Origin: Paraspadella gotoi | Lineage: Eukaryota; Animalia; Chaetognatha | Direction of reading: 5' to 3' | Assembly (NCBI GenBank): GCA_051294375.1 | Contig: CM119266.1 | Location: forward strand, 18,648,087-18,712,086 | DNA length: 64,000 bases | Shown here: in pieces, positions 8,257 to 57,254 of the stretch | Position numbering within the stretch: the stretch's first letter is position 1 | Layout of the letters: each line of letters begins with the position of its first letter | The notes under the pieces: model-generated | What the model was told of the DNA's origin: nothing | Seen by the model: only the letters and a program-made list of their open reading frames with translations | Database searches by the model: none | Program-made: the position numbers and the translations under genes

Positions 8257-8722
8257 ACGATTTGTATTTTATTAAACATTTGAGAGAGAAACCCAATTGC
8301 GCGAGAGGTTAAAAGGATGAAGGAATAACAATTTATTTTTCAAAATAAGACAAAAAACTTATTGCGGCCAAGATTTAATTTCAAGCAATAAAAGAAAATA
8401 ATAAAATTATGAAATCGGAGCAACCAATATAAAATTTATCCATTCATTCAATAAATAGGACATCTTCTCCCTAACTTTTGCCATGGCCGTTGGCCAGGAT
8501 ATTTTAGATTATTTTACTTGGATAGTTGGAGATTGATGACTCAGTAAAGATTGATTGATTGATTAATTGTTGATTGTTTAGCGAACCCACGATTAAAGAT
8601 GGACATTAATTATCGGTAAAATGACAAAAAGAATCAAAAATATAGCTTGGGAGAGTGTACTGGCACGAAAAATTATTAGCAATGGGCGAAAAATATAGTT
8701 TTGGCATTGACGTGTATGGGGC

Positions 8723-17545: not shown

Positions 17546-19559
17546 CTGCTGAGGGGCATAGAAGTTACTGAATGCAGTCTTCAGCCCACTTATCGCTTAT
17601 TCACAATTGTTCTTATTAATGTCATTATGGATCAGTTAACTAATAAAAAATATTAAACACATATTATAAAAATATAATAGTAAAATAATTGTTAATTTAA
17701 AGAATAGTATTTGAAAAATCTTTCAAAAATATGATTATTTCCTGTCTTTTTTATTTCGAGGTAATATTGATAAAAATATTTAATATTTTTAAAAATTTAC
17801 ATTTAAATTATAATTCATAAAAAGTAAAATAATCATTCAGCTGTGTATAATTAACCATAAAATAAATAATTTTAAGTTTAAATCGTTTTATTCCTAAAAA
17901 CAAGTTATTTTTTAACCGGAAGTGGTACGCCACATAAAGTGCGTGAAAGTCCATAATTCTCGACCTGAGAATTTTTCATTGTGATATTCGTTTTTATCAA
18001 TAAAATTGGAATGAGAAACTTTGCAAGAACAACAACTTTTCCAAAGTGGGATATTTTTGGGAGGCCTAGCCTATATTATAAAAATGTAAAAATTTTAACA
18101 CGTTTTTTTTATTTTTGAAAGCAGATTCGAATTTCTCAGGAAATGTAACTCTTTTTAGAAAATTATTTCATTAAGTAGGTCAAAATCCTAAAAAAACTAT
18201 TATAATTAACCTATAATTAAATTTTAGTATAAAAAATATAGTTTTTTAAATTTTTAGCTAACTTAATAAAATAATTTTTGATTAAGACTTTTTCTTTTAT
18301 CAACTTTTTATTAGGAATTCGAATCTGCTTTTAAAACTAAGAAAAAACTATTTTAAAATTTTGACATTTTCTATGGTAAGTACTATGTATAAATATGGGC
18401 TAATACGAAAATTAAAAACTTGATGATTTTTTTATATATCAATGTTCTTTAGTACAAAACTGTTCATAATCAATTATTCGAATTTTGATCTGCAACTTTC
18501 ACTACGCCTTACTGTGCATGAATACTTTCTTTTTGACTTTTAATCGTCGCAAATGACGAAAACACTTTGTATCTTTGTAGAAAAGATGATATATAAAACA
18601 AGAATATAGATTTATTAAAAATGTAAACAAAAAAAAGACCATTGGCTTTCACGAATCATTTTTTTGGGTAATATTTCGTGTTGTAACCGATGAGTGAAGA
18701 AAACAAAAAGATCAATCGTCTGATTTCTGTGTTTCTCTCTTTCTAACGATAGATGGAGCTTATTTCTTTTTCATGAAACCTAGTCTTTCAAAACAAAAAC
18801 AAAAAACAAACAAAAAAAGAAAAACACTTTCCCGTTTTTCTCTTCCTTTTATTCTCTAAAGCCTTTTTGATTTTCCTAGACTTTGTACGATGTATAAATA
18901 TAAAACAAAGAAAGCGATTTATTTTTCTTTTTTGTATGCATAGAATCGTTATTTGTATAATTAAATTTTCAATGAGAGAAAGTATTCATATCTTTTAGAA
19001 CCAAATTAAAAAAAAACACACACACACGTCTTTCCAACTATAAAAAAATCATAAATATTAATATTATTAAAAAATATGAATTAATAATTTCTGATGGCAG
19101 AAATCCTCTGCTGTTGTTTAGCTTCTTTCACAAAGGAGCAAATTAATGCTACGTACGTTACGTCATTATGAAATAAATTATTAAATAAAAACATGAAAAC
19201 AATTTACTTTTTTATTGCTTACCATCATAGCTATAATTTCAAGGTACGAAGTAACTACCATTTCAGTATAACTTTTAGTTTCTTTTTTTTATATCAGTAC
19301 TTTTGTTTTGATCGGTAATGTAATGTAAACCAATTCTTGAATATAATTTTCATTGCGTTATATGTAATTTGTGATTTCATTATTTGAGGAGTTAAAGATA
19401 AACTGAGTCCATTTTTTTTACTAGTTAGACATGAAATTAATCAATAGTCGTCATAATTTAACAAATCAATAGTTCAATACCCACTTAGCCCACTTAGCGC
19501 CTTATCCACAAGACCACCAGTTTTACATCCGACCACGGAAAAATTCCTACAATCTCCAT

Positions 19560-20821: not shown

Positions 20822-22539
20822 TTACTCTTCTTCAAAACTTTTCTTGACTTTTCTGATTGGAAGATTCTTTGCCATTTTATCCAAATTTTTTATTTCATCT
20901 TGATCCATAGTTGTAGTTCCTCCTTTGATTCCCTGTCCCTGTAATGAGTGCACAAAGTTATCAATAATAACCTATTGGTTAATTAAAAAACTGCACATGA
21001 AACCGGATTTAAATTTATTTTTCAACTTAATAAGAAACTTTAAATTACTTTTTACGTTATAATTTGTTTCCTTAACTATTTCACATCGTTTAGTCAAGAA
21101 AACCTATATTTTTTTTTATTTTTGAAGAGTCACAAGCAATTGATACTTGGATTTTGGAAAAACAAAGCTACTGTGGAAACCCTCGTCACAAAGATTTACG
21201 TCGTTGATTTAATTAAATTAATTTTATGTTAACTTAAAAAGTCAGTAACAAAAACAAACGAGATTCTACGTTTCTACAACGCAGGGGCGGCGAGAGAGGG
21301 GAAAACCCTAGCCTCAGGTGGGGGGGGGAAGAAAAAAAACCCGTATAACCTTATCTCTATTGCTGCTCATGGTTAAAAATAAGCGCTAAATTTCATCTAG
21401 TCAGAAGGTTTAACAAATTTAAACCCATCACTCAGACTAGAGGAGAGGCACAATGATTGTGATTAAAAAAAATCAAAAAACAATTCAGTAAAACACCAAT
21501 GCCAGGTTGCAGGTCCTGGAGGCAGAAGTTTGAGCACTGGAGCAATTTCCAAGGCAGAAAGCGAAAACTAAAAACTAAAATTATGGAGAGCGGGGGGGAG
21601 GCCCGGCCAGGGGCCCAGTGCCCGCCATTTCTCTCGCCGCCCCTGCTTCAACGTATTACAAATATTCAAAACAATAATAAACGGGCGATATACAACGATA
21701 CAATGATACCAGATACAACAAGGTTAAAATGTCGTTGATAAAGGCCTTGGCGCTCAATGGTTACCCTCTGTGGGCATACGAAAAGGCTAGGTACCAGCAG
21801 AACCTGGCTGAGGGTAGTGGCCACCAAGGGGCTACCCAAGTAACTGCTGATGCAAGTCCAACCTCCACCCCCCAGAATGAAGGGCAGGACTCTGCTGCCG
21901 AACAGTCTACCGGCCCACCACAGCGCAACTGGAAACTAAGCAGAGGCGTCCTAGGAACGTGGGTTACCTGTCCCTGCCCTACCACCCAAGAGAGATAAAA
22001 TCCCCAGACCGAAAACATCAGGAGCCGTCTATTGGGAGGCCTGTGCGGGGCGGGCAACCAACCCTGACAGCAGCATACGTGGGTGAGACAGGGAGTCTGT
22101 CAGATCGGTTCAGCAGCACACTAAAGAGCCCTACCGTGACTCTCGCAAATACTGGCCATCTGTTCAGAGAAACTGACTGTCTTATGCTGTCCCATGACCG
22201 GAACGGGTTCTCAAGAGGTATTAGAGAGGCGATTTACATCAAAGCCCTCGAGCCGTCTTTGAACCGTGATAGATGACAATTCGATCTCCCTCCAAGCTAT
22301 GATTCGCTTATGCTTAGTGCCTTCTCACCACAGCGCACGATGACTCTCCTGTTCCCACTCAAGCGGTCAGGCGGAGACCTCCCGATACGCAATGGATGCC
22401 CGATGCCTCAGCCTCTCCTGCAGCAACCCTGTCCGACTCTCCTCGGATCGGGCGTCCCCCAAAAAGACGGCTGCAGGAGGAGTCTCTTCCCGTAACAAAA
22501 CTGGCGAGATTAGATTAGCAACTTACCTTCCCCCCCTCT

Positions 22540-22575
<36 letters not shown>

Positions 22576-22582
22576 CTCTCTC

Positions 22583-22616
<34 letters not shown>

Positions 22617-25600
22617 AAATGTTATTTGAAAATCCAAAAACTGAATTGTGAAAGCGTGTGAGGCTTGCATTAAAGCCGAAACATGTCTGTTTAAATCTTT
22701 TAAATCGTTGTTTTAAAAAGACTTCGTCTTTAATTTCAAACTCAACTTAGAATTTCAAAAATATTTTAGATTGAAAAAAATATTTAAATGTTTGGTTTAT
22801 TTTTTTTAGTTTACTTTGTTTAATGTATTATTTTTTAAACTCAAATAATTGTTTCACTTGTATAATTTTTTCAACTTACATAATTTTTTTAGCTTGTACA
22901 ATTTTTTTCAATTTGCATAATATGTACATATATATTTACATATATATATATACATAAACATATACATGTAGTATGTACTTGAAGTTCGGACAACTCTTTT
23001 TCGTTGGCTTTGGCGTATTCTTCCAACAGCATGACAATTCCACGTCGTTCCAGGGCGCGCGCCAAGTCGTAGACTGAACGTCCCTCTTTGTTGGGTACCA
23101 TAACATCCGCTCCTCTATTAATGAGCGTCTTAAAAAAAAGATAAGTTAAGAGCCTCTTAAGCATGAAAAAATAATTTATTTTTAAAAACAAATGAACGTG
23201 ATGTCTGATTTTAATACCATGTTTAATTTGTCAGATTAGTATATAAATAAAATCTTTTAGAAATAATTTTGTACTCATAATACAATTTTTAAATCTTACT
23301 CATTATTTTTTCAAACCAGTTTTGTTCATAGTAAATAAATAAATAAATAGATAAATAAATAAATAACTGGCTTCCTTTTTCAAGAGGAGACCCTTCGATC
23401 CTCCTCCTCCTCCTTTCACGCCCGATGAGCCTCTTTCCTTTCATTGTTTTGGACTTAGAGAGTTAATAAACGAGACTGTGAGAGTCTTGATTGAAAGCTT
23501 GCAGGGACCTGCTATGTCATTATCTTTTAAGAGTGATGGAGGCCTTAAACCAGCAAAGCCTGTCCAATGTCAGGGGCAAGATAGCTTACTTATTAAATAA
23601 ATAGATAATTCATATATTGGTTGTGCCAATTCTATAAAATTCAGCTCCTTGTATTTTTATGCTGGACGGAGTTCAATATAGTATTCCCCGATCTAATACT
23701 TAAGGGAGTGGTCTTTTCATGCATTTGAAACATTCTTTTAAATATTATACCACTTCATTGTTAGGGAAGCCAGGTACTTTAGGAGTCCGTCTGTCTAGCT
23801 TTGAGCGCCAATTACTCATGAGTTTATCAGGTGATTGACTTCAAATTTTGTAGGAGAGTGTGTGATTGAGAATTTTTGATGGAATCGTCCGAGTAGAAAT
23901 AAGTTTAAATAGAAAAAAACAAAAAAACCTGTTTTACTATTTAAATATGCTATTTTTTCTTTTTAAATTGAATGTAAATGCAAACTACATTAATTAATCA
24001 ATCAATCAATCATAGTCAGTGTTATAGTCGTCATCGCCATCAGTGTCGTCGTTACTTTTATCGTGGTCATTGAACTGACAAAAAGACCTAAAAACCAACA
24101 AGATAATTAATTATCATTTAATTAATTGTTTAATTAAATAATTACCGGTAATGATCGTAGGCAACAGGCTCAAACTTGTTACAAAGATAAGTCAAAAATC
24201 AGCAATGTCGCACTTTAAAATACCTGAGCAATAAGGCCCTTGTTAGAAATTGTGGCTAGCATTAAAGGTGTCTTCAGGTCTTTGTCCACACGGTCTATCT
24301 TTGCTCCATAACGAATGAGAACTTCGGCTATTCCTTCTGTCCGAACGCCTACGAGCGCACACCTGTCCAATTAAAATATCCAGCTTTTTAAATCCTTTTC
24401 ACAAAAAATTAAAGCCATTGATTCCATTTTAATTATGAATATCTCTGCGGTTTCAAGAAAAATCAGGAGTTTTTAGAAACCGATATAAGGCAGATAATTT
24501 TTTAATACACAATGTCTACTACAAACTTACATACCAACCGTAACCACCACAAAACTTATTTCCTTATTTGAAATCTTAAAATGAATTAAAATTTTTTAAA
24601 ACATTTTTAAACATGATTATTATTATTATTATTATTATTAAATTGGTACAACCGATATAAAAATTATCCTTTCATTTAATAAATAAGCTATTTTGACCCT
24701 GACTTTGGACAGGCTTTGGTGGTTTAAGGCCTTCATCACTCTTACAAGATAATGACAAAGCAGGCCTCTGCATCTGCCTCTGCATCTGATAATTACCGCT
24801 AAATTACCCTTAGTCGATCCGACATGGTTTGTTCACTGTTCACTGTTCAATGTTCAGACTTGTTAGTTTTATAAATGCCGCCAGCAAGAACCTTTCTTTC
24901 TCTCTCTATCTCTCTCTTTCCCTCTCTCTATGTCTGTCTCTCTTTCATCAAAGAAAAAACATGACTATTTTTCAAAATAAAATTACTTGTTTGTAATCTT
25001 TAAAATAAACATTTCCATTGTAAATAAAAATCTTTAAAATTTCAAAAAAAATTTTTATATAAATATATTGCAATTTTTGTTTTTATTCGCATTCTAATAT
25101 ATTTTTTGTATATGATGATAAATACTTATCAGTGCCTTAACTAGTAACTACTACTACATTTCTTCTAAAGTATAAATGCTCCGATTATTCCGACAAGGTT
25201 CTTTTAAATACTGAAAAAACAGGTTTGAGCAAACAATGTCGGATCTGCCCACGATCATTATCGGTAATTTATTAATTAATAATTAATTTATAATTAATTA
25301 ATTCAAGTTAATTATTTAATTAATTAAGCAATTAATTATTTATTTTGATCCAAAATGTTTCTTTTTATTAATTAATTGACTGATTAATTAATTATTTATT
25401 AATTAATAGACTTATTTATTAATTAACTGATTAATGCATTTACATTTAATATAAAAAGAAAAAAGCATAATCAATTAGTGAAACATGTTTTTTGTTTTGT
25501 TCCATTTAAACTCATTTCCACTCAAATGATTCCATTGAAACTTGATTTACAGCTTAATCACACAGTTTTCTACCCACATACAAAATTTCAAGTCAATAGC

Positions 25601-28600
25601 CCCATCCACTCATGAGTAATTGGTATTCAAATAGTGAGATTTTTTTTTCCATTTAAACTAATTTTCACTCGGACGATTCCATCAAAACTTGATATCCAGC
25701 TTAATCACACACTTCCCTACCCACACACAAAATTTCATTCAAATCCATCCATCCAATCACGAGTAATTGGTGTTTTTTGCTAAGGTGGGACGAACATACA
25801 GACAGACGGACGGACGGACATCATTTTTTTTTTGGCATAATTTATCATAATTCGATGTTCTGACATGATATAAGTGAATGCCCGACAAGATTGAGGGGGC
25901 GGACCGACGGACCGACAAAGTGAATTATAGAGTCGGGATCTGCTGATAAGCAGATCCGACTAAAAAGAGTGCATAACGCTCAACAGCAACCTGTGAAGTG
26001 GAGACCATCCCTGGTTGTCCAATGCCTCTGGATTGGCCCCATCACCAAGCATGTACTCCATTAATTCCGTATTTCCACTATCTACTGCCCAATGAATAGC
26101 GTAAAGGTGGGAGGAGTCGTAGCTGTTAGCCCAAGAAAGGTTAATATCAAATAATAGGTTCTTGAGTAAAAAAAAGAAAACCGAGTTTCTAACAATTCAT
26201 AAGAAGCCTCGAAAAGACGCAAACACTTTAAGGCCTTTAATTGTCCAGAATAACAGGCAACCATCATTGCAGTTCTTCGTTGTTCCCGAGACTGAAAGTT
26301 TGGGTCAGCACCTCGTCTCATTAACGCCTGCATAATTCTAGGGAAACAAGTTTATTATTATTCATTAGAAGACGGTGATAATGTCTTTTTAGCCGCATCT
26401 GCTAACGGCAGATTCCTTCTCTATAACTCTCTTTATTACTTATGAAATAAATACAATCAATATATATAACATTTTGAATTAGAAAAAAAAAATTTATGCA
26501 TTATCTTTTTGAGTGCATATGGCATATTGTTTCAACAATTTGTTGTTAAGGAATAATATAATGAATAAATAAATAAAATAATAAAAATTAGATCCAGGAA
26601 TACTATATTCTACTCCGCAAAATTGAACTGAAATTGGTAAAATGAATAAATTAATTATCCAATATCCATTCATTGAATAAATAAGCTATCTTGCCTATGT
26701 TAATAGACTTCATATGGTGGGTTAAAGCCTCAATCCCTCTCAAAAGATGTAATAAAAAGCAGGAATCTACAGGCTTTCTTTTAAGACTCTCTCACAGTCT
26801 AGTTTATTAACTCCCAGAGTACCTGTCTTCCCTATCATTGAAGTGGTATAATTATCTCGCTCATTTTTAGTCTTTACTTGATCTTGTCCTTGAGCGCAGC
26901 ACGCATTAGCGGGGACATTCCTACTGGATCCTCGGCATTAGGATTTACTTCTCCCGTATCCATGATTTCAATCAACCCCTATAATTATGAGAAACATAAC
27001 AAATCATAACTAGATCATAACATTATAAATCATAACAGGTTTCTCAATTAATCAATTAAAAAATTATTAATCAATCATTTAACCAAATTAACAATCAATC
27101 AATCAATCAAGTAGAGAGAGTAACTTTTAAAAATAAATATAAATGTGTCTGTTGGTTTTCTAATTTAAACTTCTACGATTCCCATCAAAAATTTATATCC
27201 ATCTTTCATTTCAATTTATCAATCCGATTTTTAATAAATATAATAATTATGAGTAAATATAAGTAAAAATTTTAAGTAAATGTGACTTGAACCAGCCTCT
27301 TCAATGATCCCAAACACGCAAACCGGGCCTTTGATGTTATTTTAGCTACGCAATGGCCACCAGAATTAAGAGAAGGTTCAGAGGAGATGTTAATGGAAGT
27401 CATTTCGATGTATAAAGAAATGAATAGGCGTCTCGATTATCAAAAAGGTTAATTTACGTAATACACAACATTACCACACACGTTAAGGTCATCCAAGGCA
27501 ATCTTTTGGAGTACGTCCAGTACAGAATATGGTGACCTCTTTGTCTCGACCAACAAAGTTTCTGACCACAAACTATGAATATTCTGTTCATGGTCGAAAG
27601 CGCGAAGCCGGAACATATAAGCAGTTAGAGGTTTTAAGTTTTCCACCACAAACGACATCCCATAACTGCATAAATGAGGATAAATATTTTCTGAATTTCT
27701 CGAATTTTAGCAAGAAAATAGCTAGTCTATACTGACGTTCGTTAACACTGAACAGCATTTCCTTTTCTGTCATTTAATTAATGGAAAAATGCTTGTCCGT
27801 CTCTTTTTAAACTTGTATAACTAATATAAAATTTATCCTTTTGTAATGACGTAATATCACTATCCAATGGATATAATGGGTCCTATCATCAGCGCTGTAA
27901 TAGCATGGTTAAGGATTTATCACTTAAATTCTGAACCCAATGGTCCCGGGTTTTAACCCTGATCGGAATGGTCCTCGCTTTAGAGAGACGGGCCGGTTGA
28001 ACCGACGTTTTTAAAAGCGAGGCAACTGACGGGAAAAGCTCCCAAACCCTCAATAAAATATTGATCAGATTTTTACATTCTGAAATAAAATACAAAACAG
28101 TCTTTTTAGCTCTGTCTTTGTTAGCCTCCTACACAAAGGAGTTATAAAAATAATTTGATTCTAACTCACGACGTAATAAATTAAAATATATGAAATAATA
28201 ATTTCAACATAATCACATATGCACATTATTCAATCTTCTGAATTCTGATGTTATTTTTTGACCCAAAAGTTCCAGATTTCACCGCCTAATTTTCCTTCTT
28301 TAATCTTTATCTCTCAAACTTGGCAAAAAAAAACTTGTAAAACCCACTACTAATTGCTTAATACTAATTTATTATATCCTGCGCAAATCAAATTTTATTT
28401 CATTTTTCAAAACCACCTAAAAAAGCTAGTGAAGAGTTAGTAATAATTGTTAAGAATTAATGAGAGAACCGTTCAATATAAGCAGTACCTGAGCTTCGGA
28501 TCAGGCTGTAACACCTTGTTACAGGCGGGAAAAGCGCCCCGTCCCTCTTAACTGTTAGGCGACCACCGGGCTAGAACAACGGACCTTTGGGTTGGGAGGC

Positions 28601-29539
28601 AAATGACTTGCCTCCATCACCAATGGCCACTGATGAATGGTTGGTGGATTTTAGTCCACCATACATCCCCCCTCCCATAGGGAGAAGTCTGTTGCTTCTC
28701 TTCAGTGAATTGTTGGTGGAAAGTACGTCGCCAGGTTGAGGCATGTCGCTTGAAAGTGCTGTTGTTGCTGTTGTGTTCAGAAGTTGAGCTCACCAATGAA
28801 GCGACAGTTATGTTATGAATAATGACAGAACCGTTCAATAAAAGCAGGATGTAACACCGTGTTACAGGCGGGTTAATCGCCTCATCCCTCTTAACTGTTA
28901 GGCGACCACAGGGCTAGAACCCCTTTGGGTTGGGAGGCGAATGACTTGCCTCCTGCAGCATTGGCCAATTATGAACGGTTGTTGGATTTTAGTCCACCAT
29001 ACGAGTAATCTGTTTCATCACAAAATTATTTCTTGACTCGCCTCTTCCTATCTTTAAAAAAATTCCATGGATTACTTCAGATTTTAATAAACTTTATAAT
29101 ATATCTATAATTTTTTTTAAAAGTAGGCTCTTGAAGTGACTGAAAGGAAAAGAAATTGCCGTGCCTCTCTGTAAGTACGAATTAAATATGAGATTGCTAA
29201 CTAGTATTCTCTTACCCTGTCCGTGCAATCGCCCAGTCTCTAATTGAATCTTTAGCTTTGTACTGAAGTGTATAGAGGCACCGACTATCTCCCACTGTCA
29301 AGAGAAAATGCTTGGTATTAATTCCGCCATTCGGATCAAGAAAGAGTTAGAACCGAGAATGATTTGATTTTCTCGCAACAATGTAAAAATTAATAACAAA
29401 ATGGTCAGATGCTAAGTCTCGTAAAAAGGTCAAAAANNNNNNNNNNNNNNNNNNNNNNNNNCAGATAACATGCGACGAGTCACGGGTCAACAAGTCAATA
29501 ACAATAAAATAATAGTTAAACTGGAGAGAGAGAGGAGAG

Positions 29540-29602
<63 letters not shown>

Positions 29603-32600
29603 AGAGAGTTTTTGTTTGGCGAATTGATCGTTGTCCACATATCCCCCTACCAAAGAGTTTTTTTTTTTTTTTGTTTTTTTCTGAAATAAAAGAGACAATT
29701 TGACAGTTAAGACGATAAAAAGATAAAACGATTTGAAACAATATGACATTCAAACAATAAATGAGTATTGAGCAAGACTAATTGCACTCATGGCACTAAA
29801 AATAAAAAATAAAATTCAACAATTAAGGAAAATTGGAAATTGGAAAAGTATTAAGTATACCAATGAAAATGTGAGTAAATATTATCATTATGGTTCCTAA
29901 CATTTAAGAATAAGAGGGTTGTTGAATGTGATAGGTTTCGTCGTCGTTGTGTCCTCGTCCTCATCTGGAGATGAAGCATGGATAGTAATACGTTGAGTCA
30001 AATTGGTATTGATGATGGAGGACGGAGGAGTCGGAGGAGGAGTCGGAGGAGGAATCACGAGAGTGACCTTTTTACGAGAGTTAGCGTCTGACCATTTTGT
30101 TATTAATTATTAGGGAACGTCGGAGCTTACCATTTGTGGCAACGATCAAGAAAGAGAACCGGGAATGATTTTTGTTCGGCGAATTGATCGTTGTATAGCA
30201 GATTCCGACTCTATAATCCACTTTGTCGGCCCACCACCCCCAATATTGTCGGGCATTCATTTATATCATGTCAGAACATCGAATTATGATAAATTATGCA
30301 AAAAAAAAAAATGATGTCCGTCTGTCTGTCTGTCCGTCCCCCTCTTAGTAAAAAAACTCTAATTACTAATGATTGGCTGGATGGATTGAGATGAAATTTT
30401 GTGTGCGGGAAGGAAACTGTATGGAATCGTACAGTGTAAATCTGTATAAATGGAAAATGATGATCCTAAATGAAAAATAACAATAAAAATAAATACTTAT
30501 TAAAAATAAAAAAAAAAAAAGATTCGTTTTAATTATTCATCTGATTAGCTGTTAACCGCTAAATTATCGTGGGCAGATCCGACATTGTTTGCTCAAACTT
30601 GTTTTTGTCGCGCAGAACTGTTTTTTCAGTAACTTTTTAAATTATTGACAAACTGAAGCATTTAAATATTTGAAAATACAAAAGAAATTGATATTTTTTA
30701 TTTTCCCAAAACGGTAATTACCATCAAATTATTCGGACATTATTACAATAAAAAATGCTATAATGGAAAGTCACTAAAAGAAAACAGTGGTAAGGCGGCA
30801 GTATAGCATACACTAGGCAACAGATGATTGTTCTGCAACAGATGATTCTTCTGCGACAAAAAACTTTCAAGACCTTTGTTATCTTACGTTTTTCTGCGAG
30901 GAGCGATGCTTTTTTCTTTGCTTTGGCTAAATCTTCTTGCATTTCGTCTTGATTCTTAACTGATAAAGTTAAAGTTACAAGATTACTTGTTTTACCATAT
31001 CTTTAAGGAAAATTGTTTTTATATAGTTATAATTTTAATAAATTAATAAATTTTAACTTATTACAATATATCTTAAGATTTTGACAGTTATATTTCAATA
31101 TCATTTACTTTTAGAATATTTATGAATATTGTAAGGAGTGAAGGATATCGAGGAATTATGCATATTTAAGCGTATGTTAAAAGTAAAAATCCTAAATTTA
31201 ATTTTATTTAAAATTCTAATAGTGAGGAAGACATTGTTTAAACTTTCTTTTCGTTGTGTGATATAATTAGATACATTGTGCAACGTACAACAAAGATAAA
31301 TATTTTTAAAAACTTAATAATTATTATATATATATAAATATTATTAAGTGTTAACAATTAGCTAATAATAAATAATATAAAAAGAAGGAAAAAAATGAAA
31401 TTTTGAAAAAGATACTGTTGGTGAGGGAAATAAGTAAGTGATTTTTGAGCTCTATCTAAATTCTTAAACTTTCACTTTATCACTCACTCAATGTGTCCTT
31501 ACCTTCAGCCTGTCCTCACCTCTGACCACTATTCTTTACTCAACTCTATGTCGGAAATCTTTTTGCCCTCCCTCCCTCTCTCTTTCTCTCTCTCTCCCTC
31601 TCTCTCTCTATCTTCCTGCATATGATTTGCTTATAATTTTCAAAAACCAAATTTAACGATAATGTAAGCCGAAACATGTCCGTTTTTCTTTTTTAAAAAT
31701 AAAAAATCGTTGTTGAAACTCATTATTCAAACCTTTTCTCTAATAGTGAGGAAAGAACAAAATAGCACTTCATGAATATTGAATATTAAAAAATTTTATT
31801 AAGAATTTTAAAATTAACGCTGTAGGCTATAAATCAAAATTTTAAAATGGTTTTTGTAATATTTTTTGCACATTTGGATTGTATAGTATTTCCCGATTTA
31901 ATGCCTAAAGGAGTGGTCTTTTTTTATAATTAAAACATTCTTTGAAACATTATACCAATTCATTGATAGGTAAGCCAGGTACTCTGAGAGTGAGTAAACC
32001 AGACTGTGAGAGAAGCTTGCAGGGACCTGCTATTTCATTATCTTGTAAGAGTAATGGAGGCCTTAAACACCAAAGCCTGTCCAAAGTCAGGGACTTGATA
32101 GCTTATTTATTAAATGAATGGATAATTTTTATATTGATTGTACCAATTTCATAAAATTATTATTCTTTATGAATTAAGGTACAATGATGGACGTTGTTCA
32201 TAATTGACTTTTATAATTTTTATACATTACATATGTATACAACACATCGTTAATAAACTTTCTGTTTGATGCTTCAAATTAGATATACATGATTCTTGTA
32301 GGAAGTCATTTATGAAAATTAAAATATCTAAAAAGTTTAACATAAAGGGTGTGGAATTGACAATTTTGTTTTGGGATTAATAAAGGATATTGAAGAGACC
32401 GTAATTATTTATGCGTTTGTGACAAAACCGTTCAATATAAGCAGTCCCTGATCTTTGGATCAGGCTGTAACACCGTGTTACAGGCTGGTAAAGCGCCCCG
32501 TCCCTCTTGACTGCGAGGCGACTACCGGCGCTAAAACCCTGGACCTTTGGGTTGGGAGGCAAATGACTTGCCTCCTGCACCAATGGCCGTTGCTGAACGT

Positions 32601-33566
32601 TTGCTGGATTTTAGGCCACCATAATATGATTGTTTGCTGTGCCAAAGAATAAGACGACAAGGTAGAATCATAATCTTCTCTCAGAAAGAGAACCGGGAAT
32701 GATTTTTGTTCGGCGAATTGATCGTTGTATAGCAGATTCCGACTCTATAATCCACTTTGTCGGCCCACCACCCCNNNNNNNNNNNNNNNNNNNNNNNNNA
32801 TCCATCCAGCCAATCATAGTAATTAGAGTTTTTTACTAAGAGGGGGACGGACAGACAGACAGACGGACATCATTTTTTTTTTTTTGCATAATTTATCATA
32901 ATTCGATGTTCTGACATGATATAAATGAATGCCCGACAATATTGGGGGTGGTGGGCCGACAAAGTGGATTATAGAGTCGGAATTGCTATACAACGATCAA
33001 TTCGCCGAACAAAAATCATTCCCGGTTCTCTTTCTTGATCGTTGCCACAAATGGTAAGCTCCGACGTTCCCTAATAATTAATAACAAAATGGTCAGACGC
33101 TAACTCTCGTAAAAACGGTCACTCGTGATTCCTCCTCCGACTCCTCCTCCGACTCTCCGTCCTCCATCATCAATACCAAATTGACTCAACGTATTACTAT
33201 CCATGCTTCATCTCCAGATGAGGACGAGGACACAACGACGACGAAACCTATCAACATTCAACAACCCTCTTATTCTTAAATGTTAGGAACCATAATGATA
33301 ATATTTACTCACATTTTCATTGGTATACTTAATACTTTTCCAATTTCCAATTTTCCTTAATTGTTGAATTTTATTTTTTATTTTTAGTGCCATGAGTGCA
33401 ATTAGTCTTGCTCAATACTCATTTATTGTTTGAATGTCATATTGTTTCAAATCGTTTTATCTTTTTATCGTCTTAACTGTCAAATTGTCTCTTTTATTTC
33501 AAAAAAACAAAAAAAAAAAAAAACTCTTGGTAGGGGGATATGTGGACAACGATCAATTCGCCAAAC

Positions 33567-33632
<66 letters not shown>

Positions 33633-36600
33633 CTCTCCTCAGTTTAACTATTATTTTATTGTTATTGACTTGTTACCCGTGACCTCGTCGCATGTTATTT
33701 GACCTTTTTACGAGACTTAGCATCTGACCATTTTGTTATTAATTTTTACATTGTTGCGAGAAAATCAAATCATTCTCGGTTCTAACTCTTTCTTGATCCG
33801 AATGGCGGAATTAATACCAAGCATTTTCTCTTGACAGTGGGAGATAGTCGGTGCCTCTATACACTTCAGTACAAAGCAAAGATTCAATTAGAGACTGGGC
33901 GATTGCACGGACAGGGTAAGAGAATACTAGTTAGCAATCTCATATTTAATTCGTACTTACAGAGAGGCACGGCAATTTCTTTTCCTTTCAGTCACTTCAA
34001 GAGCCTACTTTTAAAAAAAAATTATAGATATAAAGTTTATTAAAATCTGAAGTAATCCATGGAATTTTTTAAAAAGAAGGAAGAGGCGAGTCAAGAAATA
34101 ATTTTGTGATGAAACAAATTACTCGTATGGTGGACTAAAATCCAACAACCGTTCATAATTGGCCAATGCTGCAGGAGGCAAGTCATTCGCCTCCCAACCC
34201 AAAGGGGTTCTAGCCCTGTGGTCGCCTAGCAGTTAAGAGGGATGAGGCGATTAACCCGCCTGTAACACGGTGTTACATCCTGCTTTTATTGAACGGTTCT
34301 GTCATTATTCATAACATAACTGTCGCTTCATTGGTGAGCTCAACTTCTGAACACAACCAAACAACGCACTTTCAAGCGAGCACATGCCTCAACCTGGCGA
34401 CGTACTTTCCACCACAATTCACTGAAGAGAAGCAACAGACTTCTCCCTAGGAGGGGGGATGTATGGTGGACTAAAATCCACCAACCATTCATCAGTGGCC
34501 ATTGGTGATGGAGGCAAGTCATTTGCCTCCCAACCCAAAGGTCCGTTGTTCTAGCCGGTGGTCGCCTAACAGTTAAGAGGGACGGGGCGCTTTTCCCGCC
34601 TGTAACAAGGTGTTACAGCCTGATCCGAAGTCAGGTACTGCTTATATTGAACGGTTCTCTCATTAATTCTTAACAATTATTACTAACTCTTCACTAGCTT
34701 TTTTAGGTGGTTTTGAAAAATGAAATAAAATTTGATTTGCGCAGGATATAATAAATTAGTATTAAGCAATTAGTAGTGGGTTTTACAAGTTTTTTTTTGC
34801 CAAGTTTGAGAGATAAAGATTAAAGAAGGAAAATTAGGCGGTGAAATCTGGAACTTTTGGGTCAAAAAATAACATCAGAATTCAGAAGATTGAATAATGT
34901 GCATATGTGATTATGTTGAAATTATTATTTCATATATTTTAATTTATTACGTCGTGAGTTAGAATCAAATTATTTTTATAACTCCTTTGTGTAGGAGGCT
35001 AACAAAGACAAGCTAAAAAGACTGTTTTGTATTTTATTTCAGAATGTAAAAATCTGATCAATATTTTATTGAGGGTTTGGGAGCTTTTCCCGTCAGTTGC
35101 CTCGCTTTTAAAACGTCGGTTCAACCGGCCCGTCTCTCTAAAGCGAGGACCATTCCGATCAGGGTTAAAACCCGGGACCATTGGGTTCAGAATTTAAGTG
35201 ATAAATCCTTAACCATGCTATTACAGCGCTGATGATAGGACCATTATATCCATTGGATAGTGTATTACGTCATTACAAAAGGATAAATTTATATTAGTTA
35301 TACAAGTTTAAAAAAGAGACGGACAAGCATTTTTCCATTAATTAAATGACAGAAAAGGAAATGCTGTTCAGTGTTAACGAACGTCAGTATAGACTAGCTA
35401 TTTTCTTGCTAAAATTCGAGAAATTCAGAAAATATTTATCCTCATTTATGCAGTTATGGGATGTCGTTTGTGGTGGAAAACTTAAAACCTCTAACTGCTT
35501 ATATGTTCCGGCTTCGCGCTTTCGACCATGAACAGAATATTCATAGTTTGTGGTCAGAAACTTTGTTGGTCGAGACAAAGAGGTCACCATATTCTGTACT
35601 GGACGTACTCCAAAAGATTGCCTTGGATGACCTTAACGTGTGTGGTAATGTTGTGTATTACGTAAATTAACCTTTTTGATAATCGAGACGCCTATTCATT
35701 TCTTTATACATCGAAATGACTTCCATTAACATCTCCTCTGAACCTTCTCTTATTCTGGTGGCCATTGCGTAGCTAAAATAACATCAAAGGCCCGGTTTGC
35801 GTGTTTGGGATCATTGAAGAGGCTGGTTCAAGTCACATTTACTTAAAATTTTTACTTATATTTACTCATAATTATTATATTTATTAAAAATCGGATTGAT
35901 AAATTGAAATGAAAGATGGATATAAATTTTTGATGGGAATCGTAGAAGTTTAAATTAGAAAACCAACAGACACATTTATATTTATTTTTAAAGTTACTCT
36001 CTCTACTTGATTGATTGATTGATTGTTAATTTGGTTAAATGATTGATTAATAATTTTTTAATTGATTAATTGAGAAACCTGTTATGATTTATAATGTTAT
36101 GATCTAGTTATGATTTGTTATGTTTCTCATAATTATAGGGGTTGATTGAAATCATGGATACGGGAGAAGTAAATCCTAATGCGCGAGGATCCAGTAGGAA
36201 TGTCCCCGCTAATGCGTGCTGCGCTCAAGACAAGATCAAGTAAAGACTAAAAATGAGCGAGATAATTATACCACTTCAATGATAGGGAAGACAGGTACTC
36301 TGGAGTTAATAAACTAGACTGTGAGAGAGTCTTAAAAGAAAGCCTGTAGATTCCTGCTTTTTATTACATCTTTTGAGAGGGATTGAGGCTTTAACCCACC
36401 ATATGAAGTCTATTAACATAGGCAAGATAGCTTATTTATTCAATGAATGGATATTGGATAATTAATTTATTCATTTTACCAATTTCAGTTCAATTTTGCG
36501 GAGTAGAATATAGTATTCCTGGATCTAATTTTTTATTTTATTTATTTATTCATTATATTATTCCTTACAACAAATTGTTGAAACAATATGCCATATGCAC

Positions 36601-43500: not shown

Positions 43501-46500
43501 ATTTTGACAGTTATATTTCAATATCATTTACTTTTAGAATATTTATGAATATTGTAAGGAGTGAAGGATATCGAGGAATTATGCATATTTAAGCGTATGT
43601 TAAAAGTAAAAATCCTAAATTTAATTTTATTTAAAATTCTAATAGTGAGGAAGACATTGTTATAAACTTTCTTTTCGTTGTGTGATATAATTAGATACAT
43701 TGTGCAACGTACAACAAAGATAAATATTTTTAAAAACTTAATAATTATTATATATATATAAATATTATTAAGTGTTAACAATTAGCTAATAATAAATAAA
43801 TATGAAAATGAAGGAAAAAAATGAAATTTGAAAAAGATACTGTTGGTGAGGGATAGATAAGTAAGTGATTTTTGAGCTCTATCTAAATTCTTAAACTTTC
43901 ACTTTATCACTCACTCAATGTGTCCTTACCTTCAGCCTGTCCTCACCTCTGACCACTATTCTTTACTCAACTCTATGTCGGAAATCTTTTTGCCCTCCCT
44001 CCCTCTCTCTTTCTCTCTCTCTCCCTCTCTCTCTCTATCTTCTTGCATATGATTTGCTTATAATTTTCAAAACCAAATTTAACGATAATGTAAGCCGAAA
44101 CATGTCCGTTTTTCTTTTTAAAAATAAAAATCGTTGTTGAAACTCATTATTCAAACCTTTTCTCTAATAGTGAGGAAAGAACAAAATAGCACTCATGAAT
44201 ATTGATATATAAAAAAATTTTATTAAGAATTTTAAAATTAACGCTGTAGGCTATAAATGTCAAAATTTTAAAATGGTTTTTGTAATATTTTTTGCACATT
44301 TGGATTTGTATAGTATTTCCCGATTTAATGCCTAAAGGAGTGGTCTTTTTTTATAATTAAAACATTCTTTGAAACATTATACCAATTCATTGATAGGTAA
44401 GCCAGGTACTCTGAGAGTGAGTAAACCAGACTGTGAGAGAAACTTGATTGAAAGCTTGCAGGGACCTGCTATTTCATTATCTTGTAAGAGTAATGGAGGC
44501 CTTAAACCACCAAAGCCTGTCCAAAGTCAGGGACTTGATAGCTTATTTATTAAATGAATGGATAATTTTTATATTGATTGTACCAATTTCATAAAATTAT
44601 TATTCTTTATGAATTAAGGTACAATGATGGTACGTTGTTCATAATTGACTTTTATAATTTTTATACATTACATATGTATACAACACATCGTTAATAAACT
44701 TTCTGTTTGATGCTTCAAATTAGATATACATGATTCTTGTTAGGAAGTCATTTATTGAAAATTAAAATATCTAAAAAGTTTAACATAAAGGGTGTGGAAT
44801 TGACAATTTGTTTTGGGATTAATAAAGGATATTGAAGAGACCGTAATTATTATGCGTTTGTGACAAAACCGTTCAATATAAGCAGTCCCTGATCTTTGGA
44901 TCAGGCTGTAACACCGTGTTACAGGCTGGTAAAGCGCCCCGTCCCTCTTGACTGCGAGGCGACTACCGGGCTAAAACCCTGGACCTTTGGTTGGGAGGCA
45001 AATGACTTGCCTCCTGCACCAATGGCCGTTGCTGAACGTTTGCTGGATTTTAGGCCACCATAATATGATTGTTTGCTGTGCCAAAGAATAAGACGACAAG
45101 GTAGAATCATATCTTGTTAGAGGGATACATAGTTACATATTAGGGAAAGTAATTTCTCTCGAACTTGTTATTCATTGTCTAAAAATCATCCTAACTGCGT
45201 TTCTTCGTAAGGTTACCAATTAATTCATAATCGGAATGTAATCACCTGCTTCCTCTGAAGATTCCTCCTCCTCAAATTCGTACCATTGAATTTCTATGCT
45301 AAAATGAGTGACTTTAATAACTTGCAGCCTTGGACACAGGATATCGCCCACCACCGATTCTTGCTGATAAAATTCTTTCATATAATTTTGGGTAAAGATT
45401 TGACAAGTTTCATAAGATACAGGACTCTGACCAAATAGTTTTTATATAATAATTTAATAATTAATAATTTTTTAATTAAAAATCAGGTTGGAAGTTAAGG
45501 TTAAGGATAAGGTCATTGATGAGGCTAGTGATTAAGGTTAGGGATTAGGTTAATGATTATGTTATGGTTATGGATTAAGGTGAGGCATTAGTAATTAAGG
45601 TTAAAATTTAGCCATAAGGGTTTAGGGTCAAATTTCAAAATTAAATTAGGGTTTGAAATAAGTCTTGAGGTTTAAATTTAAAAATGTTTGGGTAAAATAT
45701 TAACGTTAAAATTAAATTCTGGGATAAAGCTACAGATATAAAGCGCCTGCACTAAAGCCAAAAATTCAGCCTACAAAAAAGTTTATAAAGAGATAACCAA
45801 TACCAGATTTTCATAAAATCAAGATTAGATCATTAATGCTTCAGTACCAAAAATGACTTTACAAGAAAAATGTCATTGTAACAATCCTGCCTCTTATGCT
45901 TACTGTAATATACAATAAGGCGCAGATCAAAATTTTAATAGTTGATCATGAATAGTCTTGTTCTAAAGAACAATATATATTTTTTTTATTAATTTCTTAA
46001 TTTTCGTAGTAGCCCATTTTTATACCATTAAAGATTAAATTTTTTTTCAGTTTTGAGAGCAGAATCGAATTGCTCAAAAAAAGTTAGTATAAGAATATGA
46101 AATTGGTACAACCAATATAACAATTACCCATTCATTTAATAAATTAGCTATCTTGCACCTGACTATGGACACTGGATAGGCTTTGGTGGTTTAAGGCCTC
46201 CATCACCCTTACAAGATAATGACATAAAAGGTCCCTAAAAGCTTTCAATCAAGACTCTTACAGTATCTTACACTCCCATTCTTAAAGAATTTGAGTTCAA
46301 CAGTAAGACAAAGGAACATTCAAAATAAACTTTATCTGCACCCACTAAATCTTCACTTGATCCTGCTCTTTAACCAAATAGCAATTATTTTTTTAAATTT
46401 TTAGTATCTTAAATCTTTTAAAAATTATTTTTTTGTTATTTTTTAACAAATATTTTTTATTCTATTTCTTATTTTAAGTATTTTTAATCTATATCATATA

Positions 46501-49500
46501 TCAAAACAAAAATGATTTATAAAATATTTTTACAAGTACAAAAATGTTATTAGTGCTGAAGTAACAGTTCAGTTTAAGCCCTTGAAAGTGATTTATTGTA
46601 TGTAATTATCCAGTTTTTGGTTAGGAAAAATTATTGTGAATGTTACATTATGTTTATTTTGACATACTCAAGATTTTTGTAGAATGGGAATAATTGACAG
46701 TGATGATAATGATTTCATAAAAAACGATGTAGAAAATGATTGGGAGGAAATTTTGTTTTAATAGACGCTCATTAAGTTGAGCTTGAGGAAACTGCTAAAT
46801 ATTATAAATTTAATATGCAGCTTATGATGTTGGATGCAGAGAATATTTATTACTGTTAAAACTATTTTCCAGCTGACTGCAACTCGATGTATTGTCAATA
46901 TAAATGACTTTTATAAAACCATCTGCATAACCATAAAATTCTTTCAATTAAAACCCTTAAAATCTGATATAATTGTTTTATTTTGAAAATAAAGACATCA
47001 TATAAAACTGCAAGAATTTCTGAATCCAATGAATACAGTAAATGCATTATTTAAAACTTTACCAATTACTGCATTGATTTGTAAAGTAACAGTACGCTTG
47101 AGACACTCTGTAATTAATGCGAAATATTAAGTCTTAATCAAAAATTCTTTTATTAAGTTAGCTAAAAATTTATTTTTTATGAAAATTTAGTCATAGGTTA
47201 ATCATAACAGTTGTTTTAGGATTTTGACCACATTTTTAAATTTTGACATCATTTGACATTATGAAAGTACTACTGGGCTACTGCAAAAATTAAAAAAGAA
47301 AAAATAATTTTTTTGTTTAAAAATGTTTACAGGTACAACCCAGTTCATGATCAAGTATTTGAATTTTGATTCTATGATTTTAAAAGTTTTGCTACGCTTT
47401 AATATACAATAAGTCTTAAAAGGCAAAGTAAAACATTTTATAATTATCTTCAAGTATAACTAGTAATAATTAACTTCATTAAATCCTTAGCAACTTTTTG
47501 AAATTTTATATATTAAGCTAAGTATATCCAATAAAATTATACGTTCAAGTGATAACCGGATATGATGCAGCTGTTGATTTTCTATCTTTTCGTGATGACT
47601 TCTTAGACTTGCTCTCTAAAATTTCATTCAAAGAATTAATTAAGTAAAATAAAAATTCTAAAACACCAAAAATTCTGAAAATCAGCATTCTAAGATTAAT
47701 GAATGAATACCATGGTTTTATTAAAAGTTCCTGTAAAACATTTTGTCAAATTTTGCAATTTAATCAGCAAGTTAAAATTTTTTTGTTTTGTTTTTTTCTT
47801 TATTTAAATGAGCCGTCTTTTAGCTAATTATGATTAAAAATGTATGTGTGACGTGAAACTAAAAGAAAAATTTTAAACATACAAAGAGATCCACGGGTAG
47901 CGATCTCAAATAAATGGTTGCAGCGCCCATACGTGCTATCTGTTGTTCATGATCAAGATTTAATTAGTTAAAAAAGTCTTGTTAATGTTTTGGGTACTTA
48001 TCCTATAAAACTTTTTCATTTCAAATTTTGCGCAGTAAAAACTGATTTTTCAAAACATAAAAAATCTAGTTTTTGATGAATTCTTTAAAACCGACTTCAA
48101 CTTGACTTACACCACTCTTTGCTAGTTTTAATATCTACAATGGCTAAGATGTTAGAAAACTAAAAGCCAGCTAGTAAATAAATTGCAATAAGCAAGGTTT
48201 ACTTTGAATAGCGGAAAGTTAAGGATAAAGCTCAAAAGCTCAATCTCAGAAAATTTGAAAATCGAAAAACTTTAAAATGCTACTGGGTCACTCAAAAAAA
48301 ATAAACATGACTTTTGAATATTTAGCAATATTGATGAAAACTTTATTCAAATTAGTTAATGAGCTGTTAAATTTCTTTTGGGAAGACTAAAGATAGAACC
48401 CTATAACTTATGGGAAAAATATAATTCAGGATCACCTTTATCTTTCTCTTCTTCGGCATTTAAAACTTCCCCCGACAAAACTGTGTCTGAATAAGTAAGT
48501 ATAAAAAACATAAACCAACTATTAAAAAGTTTTTTTCTTTTAAATATAATAACAACGCTTACGTTTTGATTGAGCCATTGACGTTATTGACTGTAGGAAA
48601 AAAATAACAAAATAACAAATGAGGACGGATAATAATTCTCGCGATTATTTCAAATCCGTTCTAATTCCTCCTAAAAGTTATGAAAAATATGTCGTCAGAA
48701 ATAAACAGTTTAGACTTATTAAATCTACAGTAAGGAAAATGCCACAAAAGCCAGCCCCGGTACCCTTGAAGAGTTAACAAGCAGTCCCTGAGCTTCGGAT
48801 CAGGCTGTAACACCGTGTGACAGGCGGGTTAAGCGCCCCGTCCCTCTTAAATGCTAAGCGACCACCGGGCTAGAACCCCGGACCTTTGGGTTGGGAGGCG
48901 AATGACTGGCGAATGAATGGCCGCTGATGAAAAAATAAAATGAAATAATCATAATGATATATAAAATATATATTATATAATTATATACATTCTTTTACAC
49001 AACTTTTAATTTAAAAATTTTGAATTTTCTAACCGCGCGTGCTTTCTCATCTTTACTCTTGACTTGCCGCTTGTGCTTTTTGGAAATTCCTTCATCACGA
49101 TGACGATGTTTTTTTAAAACCCCCACAATCGGTGTCCGGTTACCTGGCAAAAAAGTGTGTTGTACAAAGGGCCTTCAACCCTATCGGAGAGACAGAATAA
49201 CTTATAAATTAATGAATAAACCGTTCATACATTAGTAGTCGATGAGTATCGGATCAGGTTATAACGCCATGCGACAGGTGGGTTAAGCGCCCTTTACTTA
49301 AAGTGTGTCTAAAATTTAGAAATGTTTATAGCTTATTTGGCATCCTGCACAATTGACTTAGGCATAATAAGGTCTTTTGCCCAAATCTCATTGAATTTCG
49401 TTGAACACACTTAGCTCAACTATGAAAGGACTTTTGGATCCACTATGGATAGATGTCACAGATGCTAATTGATAATATAAATGGCCAAAGTAAAAAATAT

Positions 49501-57158: not shown

Positions 57159-57254
<96 letters not shown>

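Follow-up and report, generated by a model that had tools for sequence, protein, structure and literature searches.

Structure of the Element and Its Copies

In the window, i.e., the whole stretch of 64,000 nucleotides of Paraspadella gotoi DNA that was analysed, the minus-strand segment 29001-28430 is a single non-coding LTR retrotransposon of 572 bp. What the initial annotation described as two tandem copies of a SINE-like unit are the paired LTRs of this element. It has a primer site of tRNA-Trp type and a polypurine tract, is flanked by target duplications of 4 bp and also occurs as solo LTRs. Its features are as follows:

29002..29005, minus strand: target-site duplication, upstream copy, CTCG (three of four letters agree with the downstream copy)
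28797..29001, minus strand: 5' LTR, 205 nt, with two deletions, one of which takes out P4/L4 of the twister motif
28783..28796, minus strand: primer-binding site of tRNA-Trp type, directly 3' of the 5' LTR, decayed in this copy
28664..28796, minus strand: internal non-coding region, 133 nt
28666..28676, minus strand: polypurine tract, ending 2 nt upstream of the 3' LTR
28430..28663, minus strand: 3' LTR, 234 nt, with pile-ups of contig loose ends at both ends in four of four runs
28426..28429, minus strand: target-site duplication, downstream copy, CTAG
28642..28661 and 28980-28999, minus strand: hairpin at the LTR 5' end
28972-28980 and, with one mismatch, 28634-28642, minus strand: upstream arm of a 9-nt inverted repeat, AACCGTTCA, internal to the LTR
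28467-28475 and 28829-28837, minus strand: downstream arm of the same repeat, TGAACGGTT, 37 nt inside the LTR end

The loose ends were counted in four public runs, with at least 28, 32, 13 and 18 records at 28430 and at least 98, 112, 24 and 45 records, in the same order, at 28663. The spacer between the LTRs is itself multi-copy in all four runs (28664-28780 covered), and the junction letters drawn from the runs match 13 of the 14 letters of the tRNA-Trp primer-binding site given for Gypsy-32_NVi and Helenus-2_SyJa. Primer site, purine tract and duplications are found at both loci that keep both ends, the duplication being exact at one and agreeing in three of four letters at the other. The LTR ends with CA and starts with TA; the lack of a TG start counts against the explanation favoured below. 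The two LTRs are identical at 180 of 205 aligned positions (88%), and this divergence of 12% indicates that the copy is old.

These boundaries modify several earlier statements. The head-to-tail spacing of 362 bp holds at TGAACGGTT but becomes 338 at the hairpin because the upstream copy has two deletions. The conserved leader placed upstream of the promoter is the 5' part of the LTR, with the hairpin at its 5' end; the approximately 33 nt concerned are kept as claimed, the depth over 28631-28660 being like that of the remainder of the unit. The "complementary ends" are the two arms of the internal 9-nt repeat, and the unit extends beyond TGAACGGTT to 28430. No pairing of this repeat across the LTRs was predicted by folding of the damaged element.

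No Pfam match to a reverse transcriptase or an integrase was obtained in the 87 open frames of the window. A search with a CPEB exon places the host among animals, without separating phyla. The internal-to-LTR depth ratio of 0.13 in run X5, which is RNA by guess only, against 0.12 in the DNA run X6 is uninformative on expression. Other copies lie in the window:

34126..34693, plus strand: second assembly of the same element, located in an inverted duplication of 8.6 kb; it likely represents the other haplotype and is not an independent copy
44833..45062, minus strand: solo LTR with an exact 4-bp duplication (ATAT/ATAT)
32391-32623: duplicate assembly of this solo-LTR locus
48767..48935, minus strand: truncated LTR, the sole window copy with every twister core position intact, UAA at 48831
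49184..49292, minus strand: decayed 3' half of an LTR

The tRNA-like Segment

Each LTR carries a tRNA-like segment followed by a twister-type motif, an order on the minus strand that the initial annotation had recognized correctly:

28559..28630 and 28902-28968, minus strand: tRNA-like segment, putative promoter, A-box-like at 28622-28611 and B-box-like at 28578-28568

The segment folds like a cloverleaf. Its Rfam tRNA match is weak (14.4 bits, E 1.7, on the copy at 48857-48924), and ARAGORN made no tRNA call. The A-box pattern is intact in one of the four copies checked, and the B-box is present with one mismatch in two of them. The letters GCGGCCA and TGGTGCAGGAGG formerly quoted for the locus come from other copies of the window; in the pair of LTRs described here, mutations affect one of the B boxes and both of the A boxes.

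The presence of a tRNA-like segment inside the LTR identifies the element as a Helenus-type TRIM (Kojima 2024, PMC10886601). It shares with Helenus/TRIMp3 a short non-coding LTR structure with a tRNA-like segment per LTR, primer-binding site, polypurine tract and solo LTRs, as well as the 4-bp duplication of the animal members, and its 572 bp fall within the 311-1263 bp of Helenus. As described in the same source, animal Helenus elements have primer-binding site types in common with Gypsy, including tRNA-Trp. However, most of the LTRs covered in the available text of this source start with TG and carry a T-run soon after the tRNA part, whereas here the LTR starts with TA, has no T4 run and continues into a twister motif of about 75 nt. 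In the available text of Kojima 2024, no ribozyme is named in Helenus and the word "twister" has no occurrence. Among six motifs searched in the available Helenus consensus file, five were absent and the remaining one was found in an internal region that is unrelated; line breaks in this file can hide matches.

A Permuted Twister Motif

Downstream of the tRNA-like segment, both halves of the motif resemble the eukaryotic consensus of twister P1, but their order is permuted: P2'-GA-T1' comes first, then a 6-nt palindrome where a P1 hairpin would be expected, then UAA-P2-T2-P3-P4. Neither the permuted order nor the missing P1 hairpin figured in the initial description.

28481..28556, minus strand: permuted twister motif of the 3' LTR, set against the S. 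mansoni table and the consensus lines of Rfam
28556-50 (P5'), 28547-44 (P2'), 28543-42 (GA), 28541-39 (T1') and 28538-33 (palindromic P1), minus strand: 5' part of this motif
between 28532 and 28531, minus strand: predicted cut site, mutated in this copy
28529-27 (P2), 28526-25 (T2), 28524-06 (P3), 28505-488 (P4, with L4 at 28500-493) and 28487-81 (P5), minus strand: 3' part
28843..28899, minus strand: damaged motif of the 5' LTR, UAA at 28875 retained, T1' mutated, P4/L4 deleted

The motif is damaged in both LTRs of this copy, the 3' LTR having UUU for UAA at 28532-28530 and the 5' LTR lacking P4/L4. The conserved UAA, GA and U-NNN-AAG, together with the pseudoknots T1 and T2, are nevertheless intact in the copy at 48831. 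In the family as a whole, the two A's of UAA account for 97.0-99.9% of the summed contig depth in the four runs, and of the read variants with a listed share of at least 10%, those at subfamily level within the domain fall in the P3 loop (28516, 28517) and at the outer end of P5 (28556). A descriptor composed after the sequence had been seen retrieved one intact match (48831) in the 128 kb made up by the two strands, none when each of two copies was shuffled 20,000 times and none in 150 shuffled windows. With a model built from 24 phage twisters only, 10 of the 15 matches in the window were copies of the element (family A) or of a second repeat family (family B), all of them weak (E 0.036-5.3). 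Self-cleavage at U^A is predicted from the motif.

The motif shares UAA, GA, the U-NNN-AAG loop, T1, T2, P3 and P4 with the twister types P1, P3 and P5 (PMC5408937; RF03160, RF02684). Readings of it in the ordinary P1 or P3 order fail. Natural P5-order twisters have 17-22 nt at the place of P1 in five of five matches; here, no P1 stem can form within one molecule and a loop-less 6-nt palindrome takes its place. P2 consists of three pairs and a bulged purine in both families, short of the four Watson-Crick pairs of the canonical P2, and a longer or shorter P2 may disturb the active site (PMC5408937). Short P2 strands do occur naturally, less often than the 4-nt strand (4 of 120 and 44 of 121 loci, respectively). 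The Rfam models twister-P1, P3 and P5 gave no match up to E 10 while the positive controls, including natural P5-type twisters, were detected; this may be explained by the Rfam P5 model, which includes a P1 hairpin of some length but lacks P3. When three natural copies were folded without pseudoknots or P1, the twister-compatible fold lay 9-14 kcal/mol above the minimum, P3 and P4 being well formed in two of the three and P5 seldom.

Relatives were also sought elsewhere. Viral scans, which covered CCC or CCY pseudoknots only, found at least 39 loci in which a P5 order goes with a 6-nt segment, at least five of them with a P4 of four pairs. Three of these viral loci were run against Rfam: one is the junction of two tandem P1 twisters, another an ordinary P1 twister and the third has no match, which leaves no clean stand-alone precedent among them. 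None of the 24 loci returned by a pattern scan of metagenome contigs is related to the element, so that no relative emerged from another species; P4 has three or more pairs in only 2 of the 24.

Comparison with Family B and Pairing between Copies

The same permuted layout is found in family B:

44478..44541, plus strand: family B comparator, UAA at 44503 on the plus strand
4344 and 23546 (plus strand), 24726, 26724 and 46193 (minus strand): further family B UAA sites

Pairs were counted part by part at five family A and six family B independent loci, three of 14 copies being omitted as haplotype duplicates; the counts for T1 and T2 also omit three copies in which L4 could not be found. The first pair of P2 is CG in 5/5 loci of A, and AT in four and CG in two loci of B. 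The third pair of T1 and the first pair of T2 are each GC in 2/4 loci of A and AT in 4/4 of B. In the palindrome, the centre pair is CG in 5/5 loci of A and GC in 6/6 of B, and the outer pair is GT in 5/5 and AT in 5/6, respectively. P5 is rebuilt from unrelated letters in B, and the bulged purine of P2 is retained. Such paired double changes in P2, in both pseudoknots and at the palindrome centre suggest that the fold is likely under selection, this covariation being a single contrast between two related families of one genome in which several A copies break pairs through decay.

The centre pair of the palindrome joins neighbouring letters, so that the pairing is possible only between two copies. 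A dimer-type twister formed by two LTRs is therefore predicted. The palindromes self-duplex at -8.3 and -9.1 kcal/mol and pair when two natural copies of B are folded together. On the other side, self-complementarity is found in 5% of random 6-mers.

Proposed Mechanism

What is observed comprises the LTR-internal-LTR order with its primer site and purine tract, the duplications of 4 bp, the solo LTR, the twister layout and its paired changes relative to family B; the steps that follow are our inference. Pol III would initiate within the 5' LTR, at its tRNA-like segment, and read through the element, which has no T4 run except two that result from copy-specific changes and could on that account be transcribed to its end. 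The 6-nt palindromes of both LTRs would then pair as a common P1, and a twister of ordinary P1 order would be completed by the 5' half from one motif and the 3' half from the other, leaving the other parts of the unit as a loop behind P5. Cleavage at the two U^A sites would release a unit devoid of terminal repeat, which a host RtcB-type ligase would close. The tRNA-Trp would prime reverse transcription round the circle, and the integrase of a partner would insert the DNA, producing the 4-bp duplication. A solo LTR or a finished circle would cut poorly, since each has one palindrome. The circular or read-through template proposed in the initial annotation survives as a model.

On balance, we slightly favour the view that this locus holds a full-length but decayed copy of a gene-less miniature LTR retrotransposon present in many copies, whose LTR comprises a tRNA-like segment (putative Pol III promoter) followed by a permuted twister; cleavage predicted only in paired LTR copies would give a unit RNA of ~367 nt, which would then be closed into a circle and probably copied by a partner of Gypsy type. 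A more specific reading, which we hold tentatively and with a little less than even confidence, is that of an animal LTR retrozyme with its own tRNA-derived Pol III promoter and a new twister architecture, in which the permuted motif has a P2 of three pairs with a bulge and a palindromic P1 that lacks a loop. Its two LTRs would form a double twister cutting only full-length transcripts, its circle could not recut itself, and the same dimer-type twister would be present in a second, non-LTR repeat family of the same genome.

Alternative Readings

Pairing between LTRs would be unnecessary in a Helenus-type TRIM whose active twister, lacking P1, cut in monomeric form and so served to terminate or trim the Pol III transcript. 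P5 closes the domain inside one LTR, and P1 is dispensable in other twisters: P1-less twisters are described as cleaving near the wild-type rate (PMC5408937) and S. mansoni variants with a weak P1 as active (PMC8501958), which suggests that the monomer might cut. However, the 6-nt palindrome is maintained through a central double change in 11 of 11 loci, and a plain linker would need none; we regard this reading as unlikely.

Similarly unlikely, and slightly more doubtful in our opinion, is an ordinary Helenus TRIM in which the twister is a relic of a captured family B-like repeat and no longer cuts in family A. The non-canonical P2, the missing Rfam match and a fold that is not favoured in nested folding are in keeping with a relic, and Kojima proposes that such LTRs originate when a small element inserts into a TRIM (PMC10886601). 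On the other hand, the bulged P2 is common to both families, and the commonest letters of family A retain all core positions and differ from B by paired changes, from which it follows that the amplifying master copy carried an intact fold.

An SM-alpha-like SINE in tandem arrays with a leader retained by read-through, as initially put forward, has a tRNA-like head, a ribozyme motif and the Schistosoma precedent in its favour, but is very improbable given the LTR-spacer-LTR order with primer-binding site and polypurine tract, the ends fixed on both sides, the lack of a tail and the short duplications. A non-autonomous, DINE-1-like Helentron with subterminal inverted repeats, 3' hairpin and captured tRNA-like piece would be in keeping with the succession of 9-nt repeat and terminal hairpin on the plus strand, as in DINE-1, but is largely refuted and hardly credible: the repeat of DINE-1 is terminal to 2 bp internal at the 5' end and DINE-1 inserts in TT without duplication, whereas here the repeat is 37 nt inside the end, 4-bp duplications replace the T|T sites that had been named as counter-evidence, and primer site and purine tract lie exactly at the LTR junctions.

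Relationship with Known Retrozymes

The dimer-cutting TRIM that we favour is closer to the LTR retrozymes of plants (Cervera et al. 2016, PMC4918200) than to SM-alpha, of which it had been proposed to be a twister analogue. It shares with the plant elements a ribozyme motif within each LTR (here predicted and damaged), primer-binding site, polypurine tract, 4-bp duplication and solo LTRs. According to the same source, plant LTR retrozymes have a Gypsy partner and their unit is circularised without the R region; they carry a type III hammerhead and a tRNA-Met primer, with no internal promoter reported in the available text. In contrast, the element described here is from an animal, with a twister-type motif, a tRNA-Trp-type primer-binding site, a putative tRNA-like promoter and predicted circles. 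Rfam searches gave no hammerhead match at the element.

The non-LTR retrozymes of metazoans and the dimeric hammerheads of amphibians and Penelope (PMC7229834, PMC7761336, PMC6765202) are also small animal repeats in which a palindromic stem that is too short forms between two copies. However, they carry type I hammerheads and are stated, in the available parts of these sources, to be without LTR, primer-binding site or polypurine tract, all three of which are present here. In Schistosoma SM-alpha (PMC6765202), a ribozyme likewise follows a Pol III promoter, and cleavage leaves this promoter at the unit's 3' end, but SM-alpha is a SINE-like tandem repeat with a hammerhead and no LTR features. 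The T-variants of S. mansoni in Perere-3 (PMC8501958) place a twister at the 5' end of a non-LTR element, whereas here it lies within the LTR.

The element is a candidate animal LTR retrozyme with a twister, the comparable plant design using a different ribozyme. Literature searches found no earlier description of such an element; the alignments and supplements of the original twister and dimeric-hammerhead papers might contain such motifs.

Significance

In the available text of PMC10886601, the promoter of Helenus is unvalidated and no processing step is known. A ribozyme in the LTR would be a direct possible answer to how TRIMs driven by Pol III yield a template that a reverse transcriptase can copy end to end. 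If the motif does not cut, the element adds another family to Helenus, marked by a curious relic. If it does, this would be a natural twister obliged to dimerise, parallel to the dimeric hammerheads, and as the permuted twister is missed by current Rfam models, more may be hidden in animal repeats. LTR retrozymes would then extend from plants to animals and from hammerheads to twisters.

Anatomy and Classification of Family A

All the motifs listed in the initial annotation were found on the minus strand, where they belong to a short non-coding LTR element (family A) carrying a tRNA-like segment and a twister motif in each LTR. Its parts and a related solo LTR are the following.

29001-28797, minus strand: first LTR
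between the two LTRs, minus strand: internal region, 133 nt
28663-28430, minus strand: second LTR
29001-28430: whole element, flanks CTCG/CTAG
45062-44833: solo LTR, flanks ATAT/ATAT

The internal region opens with a TTGG primer site and closes with a purine tract 2 nt ahead of the second LTR. The junction letters obtained from public runs are identical at 13/14 positions to the tRNA-Trp primer site of one Gypsy and one Helenus family. The two LTRs are 88% identical and the insertion is therefore old. When contigs from four public runs were aligned to 28331-28780, loose contig ends stacked at 28430 (at least 28, 32, 13 and 18 records per run) and at 28663 (at least 98, 112, 24 and 45 records); the spacer between the LTRs is likewise deeply covered, a depth that does not equal copy number.

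The 362-bp spacing initially proposed for the two copies holds at TGAACGGTT (362) but not at the hairpin (338), and the inverted repeat lies away from the element ends, which had been described as complementary. Helentron termini, named in the initial annotation as the refuter of its own model, are largely ruled out by repeat position, target site and duplication. The LTR anatomy contradicts the SINE-type unit first suggested. According to PMC10886601, animal Helenus elements are defined as TRIMs (short non-coding LTR elements) with a tRNA-like segment in the LTR and 4-bp duplications. The family A element almost certainly belongs to Helenus, itself already known. Besides, 56073-56097 (minus strand, within the CPEB gene region) matches family A over the initial 25 nt of its LTR, at the hairpin end, before continuing into unrelated sequence; it is perhaps another LTR family or the partner of family A with a common terminus.

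Genomic Setting

The window is animal DNA, as indicated by exons of a CPEB2/Orb2 gene with RRM and ZZ domains (56417-59031, plus strand). It also holds ankyrin-repeat exons (25963-26351, minus strand) and an fn3 exon (2068-2241, plus strand). Self-comparison of the window revealed that 21859-30386 recurs inverted at 41266-32800 (96%) and 30387-32677 at 42807-45115 (97.5%). N gaps adjoin both of these large duplications, one inverted and one direct, which are likely two alternative haplotypes assembled side by side; each locus was therefore counted once.

Other features include a tRNA-Leu gene unrelated to family A (ARAGORN; 8023-8105, minus strand) and a 290-bp imperfect palindrome (18081-18370, 72% self-match), likely a MITE, with kin pieces at 15847-15980 and 47129-47229. 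An open frame (21881-22276, plus strand) has no Pfam match; by eye, it resembles a Penelope-like element at its terminal GIY-YIG endonuclease portion.

A Permuted Twister Motif in Two Families

Rfam found no twister in family A. A part-by-part comparison revealed, within the 76 nt immediately 3' of the tRNA-like segment, both twister halves in swapped order: P5', P2', GA, T1', six letters, UAA, P2, T2, P3, P4 with an 8-nt loop, and P5. A motif descriptor gave one match in the window and 0/20,000 in shuffles, and a stricter one 0/150 in shuffled windows, both having been composed post hoc on a sequence already seen. Both LTR motifs of the element are damaged; the two A's of UAA are restored in 97.0-99.9% of run contig depth. 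The motif differs from canonical twister types in P1, a 6-nt palindrome without a loop, and in P2, with three pairs and a bulged purine where four pairs are expected according to PMC5408937.

A second, AT-rich family (family B; unit of about 323 nt) carries the same permuted motif with a palindromic P1.

4147-4444, plus strand: copy
23458-23786, plus strand: copy
24627-24772, minus strand: copy
26587-26852, minus strand: copy
44308-44602, plus strand: copy
46096-46264, minus strand: copy
5276-5376, 8397-8478, 14727-14809: fragments

Their start points vary and two copies continue into the beginning of the next unit, as expected for tandem or circular templates. Rfam gave neither a tRNA nor any other match in family B, and no LTR features were seen; it is a candidate non-LTR twister retrozyme.

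As an independent check, a model built from 24 phage twister halves was run on the window and gave weak matches (best E 0.036), 10/15 of them in family A or B. Pairs were counted over five family A and six family B loci. The P2 pair is CG in A versus AT in B, which holds both types; T1 and T2 each differ on both sides (GC versus AT); the palindrome centre pair is CG in A (5/5) and GC in B (6/6); and P5 is rebuilt with different letters while the P2 bulge is retained. Decay disrupts some pairs in individual copies, T1 and T2 being intact in just 2/4 A loci. Among the commonest letters of A and B, which form a single evolutionary contrast, all differences preserve pairing. This suggests selection on the fold, and a twister-type fold is very probably maintained in this way.

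Comparison with Phage Twisters

A 3-nt P2 strand is rare in phage contigs but does occur (4/120 loci, versus 44/121 for a 4-nt strand, among the matches listed), and three of these loci match Rfam twister-P1 under its cut-off. The phage candidates with such a strand are L150, L168, L188 and L392/L411, this last having the permuted order, six letters and no Rfam match. Two other phage loci, L403 (379-478, minus strand) and L409, hold two P1-type twisters immediately head to tail. Since the permuted layout resembles the L403 junction (second half, six letters, first half), derivation from the junction of two tandem twisters is plausible.

Proposed Dimer Mechanism

The palindrome centre pair joins adjacent letters and can therefore form solely with a second copy. 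Self-duplexes of the palindromes reach -8.3 and -9.1 kcal/mol, and a co-fold of two natural B copies runs through the palindrome. Short palindromic stems forcing dimers are already described for hammerheads. Several points count against the proposed mechanism: the twister-compatible fold lies 9-14 kcal/mol over the minimum (nested folding, three natural copies), nested folding of the damaged element predicts no cross-LTR pairing, and other twisters can do without P1 (PMC5408937).

In the literature searched (mostly open-access papers and part of the Helenus supplement), neither a twister inside an LTR nor an animal LTR retrozyme was found; nor was a natural dimeric twister. Reviews describe animal retrozymes as having no LTR, PBS (primer-binding site) or PPT (polypurine tract) (PMC7229834, PMC7761336, PMC6765202).

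In family A, the other LTR would supply the second palindrome copy. A Pol III transcript begun in the 5' LTR would encounter no terminating T4 run, as none lies in the read-through path save two copy-specific ones, and the palindromes of its two LTRs would pair within it. Cuts at both U^A sites would then release a unit of about 367 nt with the primer site, the purine tract and both LTR ends, without a terminal repeat. This lack would be met by circularisation, as it is in plant LTR retrozymes; in animals, retrozyme RNAs are reported to be circularised by RtcB in vitro. Family A is predicted with reasonable confidence to cleave actively, and the chances of the full dimer-and-circle model are about even. 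Having no hammerhead, family A stands outside the LTR retrozyme family as defined, but it is predicted to operate as LTR retrozymes do.
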